A DNA stretch of 32,000 nt from Alkalilimnicola ehrlichii MLHE-1. Its GTDB lineage: Bacteria; Pseudomonadota; Gammaproteobacteria; Nitrococcales; Halorhodospiraceae. The notes beneath the pieces were generated by a model that saw only the letters and a program-made list of their open reading frames with translations, was not told the origin of the DNA and ran no database searches. Position 1 is the first letter of the stretch; the number at the start of each line of letters is the position of its first letter. Below, piece by piece: positions 15,359 through 17,474 of this stretch. The position numbers and the translations under genes were made by a program. The stretch is from contig NC_008340.1 in assembly GCF_000014785.1 (NCBI RefSeq), positions 540,001 through 572,000 on the forward strand, written 5' to 3'.

Positions 15359-15450
15359 CTGTAGGGTCCCGGATGATCGTACCCAGCACCTCTCGCGCCA
15401 GCCAGTAATGATGACTCCTTGGCGCGATGGAATCATCCGGGACCCTACAG
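15359..15450. repeat. Nested hairpin: 19-bp perfect inverted repeat enclosing an 8-bp inner stem
   Basis: 15359-15377 CTGTAGGGTCCCGGATGAT is the exact reverse complement of 15432-15450. Inside the loop, 15393-15400 TCGCGCCA pairs with 15420-15427 TGGCGCGA. It lies 22 bp after the M48 stop. Confidence 0.85.
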
Positions 15451-15640
15451 CTACACAGTCCGGGAGTTGGAGAATGGGAGCATTGAGGTCGAGCAGGCGG
15501 GGGCGCTTTTGGTGCCGGCAAAACCAACCCTTCGGGGGTTGGCCAGGAGGCTGCACCTTAGCCTGCTGAACAGCAACGGCAATCCGCTGAACACACGGCA
15601 GCTCGGTAGCCAGATCATCAAGAGCCTGAGCGAGGTCTGA
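15419..15640 (+). CDS. Hypothetical 73-aa protein (weak call)
   Basis: The only in-frame start after the TGA at 15374 is TTG 15419, which lies inside the inner hairpin stem. There is no convincing RBS. The region has lower GC than its neighbours. The sequence ...AKPTLRGLARRLHLSLLNSNGNPLNTRQLGSQIIKSL feels like a conserved small-protein motif, but I cannot name a family. Confidence 0.3.
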   Translation: MARWNHPGPYSYTVRELENGSIEVEQAGALLVPAKPTLRGLARRLHLSLLNSNGNPLNTRQLGSQIIKSLSEV

Positions 15641-15747
15641 AATGAAGTGGCCGAGGCAGATCGTGTGCCAAGAGCGATCTAAAACGTGCCGCAATCCGCT
15701 TCTGGATGCTTCCGACGGTTCGCGGCTACGGGCTTCCCGGGGTACCG

Positions 15748-16749
15748 ATGGGCTTCCTGAAAATCGGTGAAAAGGACCGCACCGGCCGCCAGAAGCGGAT
15801 CGAGCACACCGGCAGGTACCTGCGCGCCAGCCGGACCGGGGGGATATCGCTTCGGGCCCACACCCGGGTCGCCGGGGTCAATCTCACCGGCAATACCCGG
15901 CGGGGCGTGCGGGTCTCCACCCGACTGGCCAAGAACACCCAGGTGGCCCTGCAGAACGGCCGCTTTATCCTGCGCGGCCGTTACGGGTCGGACGCGGCCA
16001 GGATCAATCTCTCCAAGAGCGGCGTATCCGTCTCCACCAAGACCCCGGTGGGGGCCTTTAACTGGGTGCGGCCCGGGCGCTCCTCGTTCAAGCTCGGGGG
16101 GGTGCATGTCCGTGGGCACAAGGCCGCGCACCTGCAGGGCGTGTATCTGCTGTTCGCCGGGTTGGTGGCCCTGGTCGGCGGTCTTTTCAAGGCCGTCGCC
16201 GCCTTGCTCGGTGGCATCCTGGGCGGGGTTCAGGCCCTCGTGGCCTGGCGCGAACGGGTGCGCGGTGAGCGCGAGCGGTTGGGGCTGTCCGCCGGCGAGG
16301 TCGCCGGGGTCGGGGAGCAGATTGTACGTGCCCAGGGGGTGGCGTTGGATCAGGAGCCGCAGCGGGATCTGTTCGCGGGGCTGCTCTTCGTGGTGACGAC
16401 GCTGGGGCGCGGGCGGACGGTCTTTGACGCGGATGCCGTCGGGTTGCAAGGGGCCGACCGCGGTGCCGGACGGGCCCTGGCCACCGATGCCGCCGTGGCG
16501 GGGCAACAGCTCGTCCGCTGGTTGGGCGAGCGTGAGGCGGATCGCAGCCCCAGGCGGATTCTCGGCCTGCTTCATCAACTGGCGCTGGCCTTCCGGGCGA
16601 GGGCGCCGCAGTCCGCCAGGGCGGAGGCCCTGCTCGCGCTGGATGATGCCTGCCTGGCCGCGGGGCCCCGCACGATCCTGCAGGAGGAGATGATCGACCT
16701 GCTGGCCGAGGCGCTGGGGGTGGACCTGGTGCTGGAGGGTGAGCGATGA
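15748..16749 (+). CDS. DUF4236-like repeat protein with a central hydrophobic (TM) segment and an Ala/Leu/Arg-rich C-terminal domain
   Basis: It starts MGF... as DUF4236 proteins do. ARINLSKSGVSVSTKTPVGAFNWVRPGRSSFKLGGVHVRG matches the DUF4236 signature (xRxNLSKSGxSxSxG), with a weaker earlier copy (GISLRAHTRVAGVNLTGNTRRGVRVSTR). The hydrophobic stretch is VYLLFAGLVALVGGLFKAVAALLGGILGGVQALVAW. Confidence 0.7.
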   Translation: MGFLKIGEKDRTGRQKRIEHTGRYLRASRTGGISLRAHTRVAGVNLTGNTRRGVRVSTRLAKNTQVALQNGRFILRGRYGSDAARINLSKSGVSVSTKTPVGAFNWVRPGRSSFKLGGVHVRGHKAAHLQGVYLLFAGLVALVGGLFKAVAALLGGILGGVQALVAWRERVRGERERLGLSAGEVAGVGEQIVRAQGVALDQEPQRDLFAGLLFVVTTLGRGRTVFDADAVGLQGADRGAGRALATDAAVAGQQLVRWLGEREADRSPRRILGLLHQLALAFRARAPQSARAEALLALDDACLAAGPRTILQEEMIDLLAEALGVDLVLEGER

Positions 16750-17474
16750 GTGATGATCTGTCGGAGGGCTTCGCCGCTGCGGTGGCGCTCCACAAGGCGC
16801 TGATCCTGGCAGCGGATGACGACGCCACCGGGACCGCGCTGTGCCCCGAGCGGCCTGCCACCCCGCAGCGCTGGACACCGACATTCCGGCTGATCCCCTA
16901 TCAGGCGGTGGATCCGGCCGGTCTGGGTTTGGGCGGGACCGACAGTTTCCACGATATTGGGGATGAGGCGTTGGATCGGGCCATACGCCAGGTTGTGTGG
17001 GTCGAGGGGCCGGTGCACGTTCTGGTGTTGGCGGATCGGCTGCTCACCGGGGCCGGTGTGGCGCGGCTGGGCTCGCGTATCCGTGGTCGCATTGAGGGCC
17101 GCCTGGCCCGTCTGGAGACGGCGGGCGAGCTGGCGCTCTGCCACGCGTTCATCGCCCGCCCCGGGCAGTTCGTGTTGCCGCCATACCGGGACTGGCGCAC
17201 GGCCCCCGGGAAGACCCGTCAGCTCGACCACGTTCATGATGGCGAGTTGATGCTCTGCCTTTTGCACGCCGTGCTGGCGGCGGAGGGCATCGCGGTGGAC
17301 GACGCGCTGAACAACGGGCTGCACCGGATCGGCTTCACCCGGCTCACGATCCATGCCCGCCAGCGGCTTCAGGCCCCGCTGCAGGCCCTGCTGGACGAGG
17401 GGATGCTCGACAACGAGGACAACCGCCTCCACCTGGGGCCGGAGGCGTTCCTGCGGCGAATCCGTTCCCGCTGA
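16746..17474 (+). CDS. Standalone DUF3320-like protein
   Basis: ATGA overlap with the upstream gene. LDRAIRQVVWVEGPVHVLVLADRLLTGAGVARLGSRIRGRIEGRL resembles the DUF3320 domain, which I know as the C-terminal module of large Upf1-like (AAA_11/AAA_12) helicase-nuclease proteins. Confidence 0.65.
   Translation: MSDDLSEGFAAAVALHKALILAADDDATGTALCPERPATPQRWTPTFRLIPYQAVDPAGLGLGGTDSFHDIGDEALDRAIRQVVWVEGPVHVLVLADRLLTGAGVARLGSRIRGRIEGRLARLETAGELALCHAFIARPGQFVLPPYRDWRTAPGKTRQLDHVHDGELMLCLLHAVLAAEGIAVDDALNNGLHRIGFTRLTIHARQRLQAPLQALLDEGMLDNEDNRLHLGPEAFLRRIRSR

Follow-up and report, generated by a model that had tools for sequence, protein, structure and literature searches.

Do two adjacent hypothetical genes, lying between a type I restriction-modification (R-M) operon and a Fic gene, constitute a functional module, and what might such a module do? 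The question is raised by a 32,000-nt stretch of Alkalilimnicola ehrlichii MLHE-1 (NC_008340.1, 540,001-572,000), here called the window. A preliminary description of this DNA proposed an undescribed module composed of a small open reading frame (ORF), a DUF4236-like membrane protein (ORF2), and a stand-alone DUF3320-like protein (ORF3). The present analysis reveals a two-gene cassette, ORF2-ORF3, whose members are inherited together and lie in variable, island-like regions. The pair is not a chance arrangement, and its reading as an undescribed module is reasonable.

A translationally coupled and co-inherited gene pair

All three ORFs exist, and two of them belong to the unit. The genes, their overlap, and the predicted domains of the two products are as follows, in window coordinates.

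15748-16749, plus strand: ORF2, Mlg_0507, 333 residues
15748-16122, plus strand: ORF2 residues 1-125, very basic DUF4236-like beta-hairpin repeat domain (alignment, AlphaFold2)
16123-16248, plus strand: ORF2 residues 126-167, hydrophobic helix (hydropathy, AlphaFold2)
16249-16746, plus strand: ORF2 residues 168-333, acidic helical-bundle domain (AlphaFold2, alignment)
16746-16749, plus strand: ATGA overlap of the ORF2 stop and the ORF3 start, read directly in the sequence
16746-17474, plus strand: ORF3, Mlg_0508 (ABI55862.1), 242 residues
16746-16931, plus strand: ORF3 residues 1-62, acidic N-terminal helix and linker (isoelectric point 4.4; predicted local distance difference test score, pLDDT, 55-74)
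16932-17165, plus strand: ORF3 residues 63-140, winged helix 1 with the EGPVH motif and an Arg-rich third helix (Pfam, AlphaFold2)
17166-17471, plus strand: ORF3 residues 141-242, winged helix 2 with conserved RDW and IGFxRLT motifs (AlphaFold2)
15419-15640, plus strand: small ORF, Mlg_0506 (ABI55860.1), 73 residues, TTG start

The ATGA overlap confirms the coupling at 16746 that was first noted. In addition, a Shine-Dalgarno-like motif, GGAGGG, lies within the last codons of ORF2, 5' of the ORF3 start. ORF2 matches a hypothetical protein of A. ehrlichii MLHE-1 with 100% identity, and the two genes were assigned to Mlg_0507 and Mlg_0508 from their order relative to Mlg_0506 (ABI55860.1) and ABI55862.1. 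The start of ORF2 is set at 15748 (MGFLKIG), and not at the upstream ATG at 15706 of the preliminary description, because this N-terminus is common to all homologues and an independent gene caller agrees.

Relatives of ORF2 were sought in one genome per species, yielding 80 genome loci, or 81 with the window; loci carrying ORF2 relatives are labelled with L-numbers (L014, L067, and so on). A DUF3320 gene lies directly downstream of the ORF2 relative in 22 of the 80 loci. The pair thus recurs in 22 other species-level genomes, which dispels the possibility, raised at the outset, that the two genes co-occur only in this genome. A possible 23rd paired locus, L013, ends at a contig edge with a partial DUF3320 match. 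The same four-nucleotide A/GTGA overlap is present in 16 of the 22 paired loci. All-against-all clustering of genes within 6 kb identifies DUF3320 as the sole conserved neighbour, present in 21-22 of the 80 loci. Median dN/dS values of 0.22 for ORF2 and 0.19 for ORF3 indicate purifying selection on both genes, and the pairwise distances of the two proteins correlate strongly (r = 0.90; Mantel test, 0 of 5000 permutations as high). ORF2 and ORF3 are a conserved, co-inherited, translationally coupled unit and have co-diverged.

Variants of the pair were also observed. Thioalkalivibrio sp. ALE14 carries two copies on different scaffolds (L014 and L050), with 90% and 85% amino-acid identity. A divergent pair at L067:10001-12570 (also at L095 and L096) comprises a 474-residue ORF2-like protein without the hydrophobic helix and a DUF3320 protein of 321-329 residues encoded 156 nt downstream.

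The small ORF falls outside the module. It forms a singleton cluster, for which tblastn and phmmer yielded no relative across the 80 genome loci; it has no match in Pfam, PADLOC (0 families at E ≤ 1), NCBIfam, or plasmids, and is omitted by one gene caller. It is therefore ruled out as a third component, and its coding status is doubtful. The small ORFs upstream of the pair in Thioalkalivibrio represent a different, genus-specific family. An inverted repeat at 15393-15427, with 17-nt arms that are 76% complementary, a 1-nt spacer, and no T-run after it, begins 55 nt past the stop of the upstream ygjP-like gene and overlaps the small ORF at its TTG start. No match came from scans for Rfam families, promoters, or terminators.

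Domain architecture and relatives of ORF2 and ORF3

The AlphaFold2 model of ORF2, built on 35 sequences (pLDDT 83), and the hydropathy profile agree with the three-part layout proposed at first: beta-repeats, a hydrophobic segment, and a helical C-terminal domain. The N-terminal domain folds in the model into an 11-strand beta-meander (residues 25-122). It contains 27 Lys and Arg versus 4 Asp and Glu residues, giving an isoelectric point of 12. Most invariant columns of the family alignment fall in residues 1-125, the best-conserved part of the protein.

The N-terminal domain shares the hairpin motif N(L/V)SKSGxSxS with DUF4236 (PF14020) proteins of bacteria and phages, but ORF2 differs in its longer, repeated beta-meander and in its two further domains. 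The Pfam match covers 23 residues and scores 16.4 bits against a cut-off of 27 (E = 0.013). Sub-threshold matches are present in 16 of 35 homologues, the best with E = 0.0027. As all scores are under the Pfam threshold, ORF2 does not qualify as a DUF4236 member, but "DUF4236-like" is a fair description. We know of no function for DUF4236 itself.

The middle segment is modelled as a single long helix (residues 124-175). It contains a hydrophobic stretch of 42 residues with one charge, a Kyte-Doolittle maximum of 2.16 over 19 residues, and basic residues on both flanks. Most homologues carry 30-50 hydrophobic residues at this position. The helix is probably a membrane anchor, formed either by one long helix or by a two-helix hairpin. 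A hairpin with both termini in the cytoplasm is favoured, since both flanks are basic and the N-terminal domain is of a cytoplasmic type. The anchor proposed in the preliminary description is thus probable for ORF2 of the window but does not extend to every relative, as several Spiribacter homologues and the L067 protein lack a clear one.

The C-terminal domain is a helical bundle (residues 182-323, pLDDT >90). It displays the motif LLALDDACLAxGPRTxLQE, which is retained even in the divergent L067 protein, and residues G222, D299, L311, and Q312 are invariant.

A whole-chain search with the three-domain model, an insensitive query, found no significant fold match in the PDB or BFVD. Phage DUF4236 proteins recur among the best BFVD matches, at non-significant E values of 0.3-1.3. 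Other weak echoes, namely TerB-like bundles and OspA/FABP-type sheets, are uninterpretable. Profile searches of the ORF2 and ORF3 families against PDB sequences yielded no match.

ORF3 is modelled as a soluble protein composed of an N-terminal helix and linker followed by two winged-helix units (pLDDT 88; predicted template modelling score 0.82). In contrast to DUF4236, the DUF3320 assignment passes the Pfam threshold: ORF3 scores 56.6 bits against a cut-off of 25 for PF11784 (E = 2.6e-15), the match spans residues 66-113 and model positions 1-49 of 50, and 31 of 31 close homologues carry the domain. ORF3 had been described as consisting essentially of the DUF3320 module. The domain is present, but the Pfam model accounts for 48 of the 242 residues; the rest comprises the second winged helix and a family-specific N-terminal stretch of about 60 residues. 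The EGPVH motif of winged helix 1 is invariant. The best PDB fold matches are all multi-winged-helix proteins (AlkX/YcaQ, SelB, Nse1/Nse3, DndG, and JetB), although they are weak, with a best E of 4e-3. Winged helix-turn-helix (wHTH) domains overlapping DUF3320 have been reported in MTES_1575 (Anantharaman et al. 2013).

The closest relatives of ORF3 are the tails of large helicases. ORF3 residues 64-228 align with the extreme C-terminus of PADLOC family PDC-S37 (positions 1386-1544 of 1550, 5.5e-20), and residues 48-199 align with positions 1752-1903 of the 1903-position NCBIfam model NF058533, "anti-phage protein ProA" (8e-11). The ProA score is 40 bits against a whole-protein cut-off of 1500, which places ORF3 outside that family. 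An exhaustive ORF3 profile search gave 2,620 representatives. Among these, helicases of 1,570-2,200 residues align at their extreme C-terminus with the profile, from position ~21-70 to its end. DUF3320 thus occurs mostly as a C-terminal appendage of helicases of ~1,570-2,200 residues, in line with the preliminary description. Only the ORF2-coupled subfamily, to which the divergent L067 pair belongs, matches the first ~20 profile positions, which makes this stretch a candidate docking segment. In the plasmid search, ORF3 matched nothing except large DUF3320 helicases.

ORF3 and PDC-S37/ProA share homology over ORF3 residues ~50-235 and the last 160-190 residues of the helicases, including EGPVH and the tandem winged helix. 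They differ in size (242 versus ~1,570-2,200 residues) and in architecture. ORF3 lacks all three parts of the full PDC-S37/ProA arrangement (DUF4011, AAA_11/AAA_12 SF1 helicase, and MTES_1575 nuclease). It begins instead with a segment of its own, and its gene is coupled to one for a membrane-type protein. In PADLOC, PDC-S37 has candidate status only, being derived from genes embedded in defence systems (Payne et al. 2024). No description of "ProA" or PDC-S37 was found in the literature, where DUF3320 and DUF4236 are each mentioned in passing in a single paper.

One locus connects the ORF2 family with these helicases directly. In a Kiritimatiellaeota metagenome-assembled genome (MAG; L076:486-8113, on the same contig as L099), 90 nt separate an ORF2-family gene from a co-oriented gene, downstream of it, for a 2,196-residue helicase with DUF4011, AAA_11/AAA_12, and MTES_1575 domains. 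The last 140 residues of this helicase align with the ORF3 profile, including an EGPV motif, while Pfam DUF3320 is sub-threshold. The L076 helicase belongs to the very family that is the source of the ORF3 module. Conceivably, DUF3320 is a docking module rather than primarily a DNA reader. ORF2-family proteins would then be membrane-proximal anchors, equipped with a basic beta domain, that station DNA-tracking defence enzymes at the cell envelope, where foreign DNA enters. The tandem winged helix, as a helicase C-terminus or as the free adaptor ORF3, would link the two, and relatives fused to a helix-hairpin-helix (HhH) domain would hold DNA directly. As a general scheme this is a long shot. 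The helicase adjacency is a single case, with no second among the 80 genome and 80 metagenome loci. A 1,590-residue ORF in L015 (15123-19895) was considered as another DUF3320-type helicase and dropped: neither a Pfam match nor a DUF3320 region was detectable in it, and in such high-GC DNA the ORF itself may be spurious.

The HhH-fused relatives belong to a wider ORF2 family. The family comprises ~390 sequence clusters, with 239-391 homologues. Its hosts are haloalkaliphilic Gammaproteobacteria, concentrated in saline and soda-lake taxa, and it is also found in MAGs of Spirochaetes, Verrucomicrobia, Kiritimatiellaeota, Latescibacterota, and Desulfobacterota, a patchy, cross-phylum distribution. 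The 74 complete family genes fall into three groups: 22 have a DUF3320 partner, 24 carry a fused HhH, 28 have neither (including L013), and none has both. The fused HhH is a C-terminal ComEA-type domain of 60-70 extra residues, present in sister clades without ORF3. As about two-thirds of the family genes have no DUF3320 partner, the core unit is the ORF2 family rather than the pair. The HhH-fused paralogues of Halorhodospira and Aquisalimonas, annotated "ComEA family DNA-binding protein", share the beta domain, the hydrophobic helix, and the C-domain with ORF2 at 36-45% identity. They differ in the additional C-terminal HhH and in having no DUF3320 neighbour. ORF2 of the window shows no HhH match or ComEA signature (PF12836/TIGR00426) and is not a ComEA protein. 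Since the same C-terminus is associated with a nucleic-acid-type module, the HhH in cis or the tandem winged helix in trans, ORF3 is proposed to bind the C-domain of ORF2.

The partner counts also bear on the notion that the pair is a toxin-antitoxin or addiction module, with ORF2 as a membrane-active toxin and ORF3 as a winged-helix antitoxin or autorepressor. An overlapping gene pair on islands, present in two copies in one genome, would suit such a module, as would a hydrophobic helix in one protein and winged-helix domains in the other. The neighbours are often toxin-antitoxin systems as well (HicB, Gp49/HTH_37, PIN/MazE, AbiEii, and DarTG). However, ~50 of the 74 complete ORF2-family genes have neither a DUF3320 partner nor another conserved neighbour, which implies that ORF2 is tolerated without an antitoxin. 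In the clades without DUF3320 no conserved partner was found, and the downstream genes vary by locus (for example DarT or WYL). Both proteins are also large for a toxin-antitoxin pair, the closest relatives of ORF3 are helicase tails and not repressors, and neither a palindromic operator nor a consensus promoter was detected upstream of the pair. A toxin-antitoxin function is thus very unlikely.

In the two-gene defence systems lambda RexAB and Kiwa KwaAB, a membrane protein is combined with a cytoplasmic protein that binds DNA. The ORF2-ORF3 pair resembles them by analogy of layout only, in that a membrane-type protein and a soluble protein with nucleic-acid-binding folds would be paired in accessory regions. 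There is no sequence or fold relationship to either system, and no PADLOC model matches ORF2. The sole match of the pair in PADLOC-DB v2, which includes Rex, Kiwa, Zorya, and CBASS effectors, is that of ORF3 to the PDC-S37 tail. The pair accordingly matches no named system, as was first surmised.

Genomic neighbourhoods of the pair and its family

The other genes of the window are arranged as follows.

1521-5836: copper-resistance genes (OEP, multicopper oxidase, CopD), upstream of the R-M genes
5904-8330: hsdM
8278-9564: hsdS
9610-9792: GmrSD_N (DUF262) fragment, 60 residues
9808-10098: truncated DarT, 96 residues, match limited to the C-terminal quarter of the Pfam model
10095-11183: DarG, apparently intact (NCBIfam, 3e-128)
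11304-14639: hsdR
14636-15337: YgjP-like metallopeptidase
17553-18746, minus strand: Fic gene, convergent, SoFic in PADLOC
Downstream of Fic: core genes, for example purN and purM

The pair occupies the slot originally described, with hsdR and the YgjP-like metallopeptidase gene upstream and the convergent Fic gene downstream. A gap of 410 nt separates hsdR-ygjP from ORF2, and the pair flanks the hsd operon rather than being embedded between hsd genes. The ygjP-like gene overlaps the hsdR stop by 4 nt (14636-14639) and appears to be translationally coupled to hsdR. Decayed defence genes lie between hsdS and hsdR (9610-11183), where the antitoxin DarG is retained beside the broken toxin DarT. 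The GC content of the hsdS region (8500-9500) is ~0.51-0.55, versus 0.62-0.72 in the rest of the window, and this low value suggests that hsdS is a recently exchanged specificity subunit.

HsdR of the window is 87% identical to HsdR of Thioalkalivibrio sp. ALJ21 (L015:3-1256), whereas the ORF2 homologue of that locus is 53% identical to ORF2. The R-M operon is divergent from the pair in L015 and co-directional with it in the window. The R-M genes seem to have moved recently and independently, yet adjoin the pair at both sites. The divergent L067 pair lies beside CusF, multicopper oxidase, and CopD genes, and the window likewise has copper genes upstream of its R-M operon; the two may share an ancient site that received the R-M genes by insertion.

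Type I R-M genes recur near the family. They are found within 10 kb in 10 of the 80 loci and in the window, hence in 11 of 81, and further type I R-M neighbours are present on metagenome contigs. In four loci an hsd gene is the immediate neighbour in the same orientation: the end of hsdR lies 20-58 nt upstream of the ORF2-family gene in L038 and L039, hsdM starts 122 nt downstream in L064, and hsdR starts 124 nt downstream in L072. The excess over an assumed background of 1-2% has P ≤ 7e-7, where the background rate is our own estimate and the loci are not all independent. The hsd linkage is an association and not an obligate one, and neither ORF contains an Hsd domain, so the pair does not encode type I R-M subunits. 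Genes embedded in R-M loci have been found to be mostly defence-related in a "guilt-by-embedding" analysis (Payne et al. 2024). Like the candidates of that study and PrrC, ORF2-family genes adjoin and co-orient with hsd genes in several genomes. Unlike PrrC-type accessory genes, the window pair flanks the operon and encodes no ABC ATPase or anticodon-nuclease domain.

Beyond R-M, the neighbourhood differs in almost every genome. Aquisalimonas loci contain integrases and small unknown genes, the Spiribacter vilamensis locus contains a beta-lactamase-fold gene and housekeeping genes, and Thioalkalivibrio loci contain HicB, Gp49/HTH_37, WYL, SRAP, transposases, and a large recombinase. Neighbours within ~10 kb include DarT-DarG (L031 and L033), a Swt1-type HEPN protein (L038), a PLD-helicase-DUF3427 protein, a type IV restriction endonuclease, and AbiEii. 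Another ORF2 relative adjoins a TIR-domain gene and a recombinase. WYL regulators (9 loci), SRAP proteins (9 loci), and ADP-ribosylglycohydrolases (8 loci) also recur within the same distance. The defence-rich setting of the preliminary description therefore extends to other genomes in part: R-M, defence, and mobile genes recur, but many loci lie beside housekeeping genes. Overall, the context leans towards defence and mobile elements in island-like variable regions.

Two particular arrangements were observed. WYL-WCX genes adjoin ORF2-family genes, 17-55 nt downstream or ~0.8-1.3 kb upstream (L090:8001-13095; L163, L167, and L174; L019, L030, L048, and L057). They are often joined by an ADP-ribosylglycohydrolase, a PTP "Swiss Army Knife" phosphatase, and SRAP/YedK, which together form a recurrent accessory set on integrative and conjugative element (ICE)-like elements. 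At L069:1270-6602, an ORF2-family gene lies directly upstream of genes that encode a DUF4007 protein, a class-V aminotransferase, and a protein of 1,091 residues without a Pfam match; this set may resemble an SspA/SspB/SspC phosphorothioation cluster.

Such neighbours could indicate that the ORF2 family is cargo of mobile elements and handles their own DNA, tethering it to the membrane or protecting it in transfer, establishment, or damage, with ORF3 or the HhH as the DNA-binding part; an anti-defence role is included here. The ComEA-like annotation of the HhH-fused members fits this explanation. One of them resides in an ICE-like block, in which ParA, DUF2857, and AcaB genes precede the family gene and WYL, ADP-ribosylglycohydrolase, PTP phosphatase, integrase, and mer genes follow it. 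Other family genes adjoin large tyrosine recombinases, transposases, or a TraI_2 relaxase. SRAP/YedK (9 loci), SprT-like, and WYL neighbours recur, and these families are generally linked to DNA damage. A Salmonella prophage remnant pairs a DUF4236 gene with YedK and UmuC, which also counts in favour of mobile-element cargo. However, the placement next to conjugation or replication genes is inconsistent, several loci have no mobility genes within 10 kb, and searches of 72,556 plasmids, 50,697 phages, and IMG/VR gave no ORF2 homologue. A transfer function would also not be expected to place family genes directly beside hsdR or hsdM in the same orientation, as in four loci. Mobile-element DNA handling is on balance unlikely.

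An accessory function specific to haloalkaliphiles, for example in the envelope or in stress, is improbable to a similar extent. The R-M and Fic genes would then be neighbours by coincidental clustering in a variable region. The concentration of the family in saline and soda-lake taxa, the housekeeping neighbours in several loci, and the copper-resistance genes near both L067 and the window are compatible with such a function. So is the segment of low GC content with hsdS and the DarTG remnant, which has the look of a separate insertion, and so is the identity to one Thioalkalivibrio strain, 87% for HsdR but only 53% for the ORF2 homologue. On the other hand, type I R-M adjacency recurs across divergent classes and phyla in varied arrangements. 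The spread across phyla is patchy, with a different neighbourhood in almost every genome, and the module to which ORF3 is homologous is one that otherwise occurs in helicase-nucleases with candidate defence roles.

A proposed role and its implications

The reading tentatively preferred, at rather less than even confidence, is that the two proteins assemble at the membrane and have a role in conflict with foreign DNA, with the winged-helix or HhH module handling nucleic acid or recruiting a partner. The case for a physical complex is genetic and consists of gene overlap, co-occurrence, and co-divergence. ORF3 would dock on the C-domain of ORF2, probably through its subfamily-specific N-terminal segment. 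It would be the trans-acting counterpart of the module, for nucleic-acid binding or partner recruitment, that is built into the proteins of sister clades. The complex, located at the inner face of the membrane, would recognise DNA or RNA. In the most speculative step, it would engage in conflict with incoming DNA. One option is a stand-alone exclusion or abortive-infection device, in which DNA recognition would lead to membrane perturbation via the hydrophobic helices. Ranked as likelier is an accessory role beside defence enzymes that track DNA, for example type I R-M enzymes or DUF3320 helicases. The sensor/effector or abortive-infection mechanism of the preliminary description would rest, as before, on guilt by association, now on a broader base.

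Several observations weigh against a membrane complex in conflict with foreign DNA. The winged-helix domains of ORF3 are near neutral (isoelectric point ~7), and DNA binding is not obvious. The hydrophobic segment is weak or below threshold in five Spiribacter homologues and missing in L067. The mutual exclusivity of DUF3320 and HhH may be the product of one or two evolutionary events only. ORF2 matches no defence model of PADLOC-DB v2 (0 families at E ≤ 1) or NCBIfam, and many paired loci are flanked by housekeeping genes (purA, hisS, thiolase, and PhoX). The estimated background of the R-M excess, the single helicase adjacency, and the missing plasmid, phage, and IMG/VR relatives, all given above, count on the same side.

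The immediate reach of the ORF2 family is limited, as it is rare and occurs largely in saline and alkaline habitats, and the pair is one candidate among hundreds. If it serves mobile-element DNA handling or a lineage-specific stress function, its importance would be modest and local. If it is defence-related, it would be a system built from two uncharacterised folds. The recurrent adjacency to type I R-M genes suggests cooperation with restriction. The alternation between an HhH fusion and a separate winged-helix partner represents a natural experiment, with the ORF2 C-terminus as the attachment point for a nucleic-acid-handling module. Should the docking idea be true, it would assign a role to a domain of thousands of large helicases and would bear on the spatial organisation of bacterial immunity. 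A defence function would also provide the first functional handle on DUF3320, the tail of widespread candidate anti-phage helicase-nucleases, and on the DUF4236-like domains that are common in phages.

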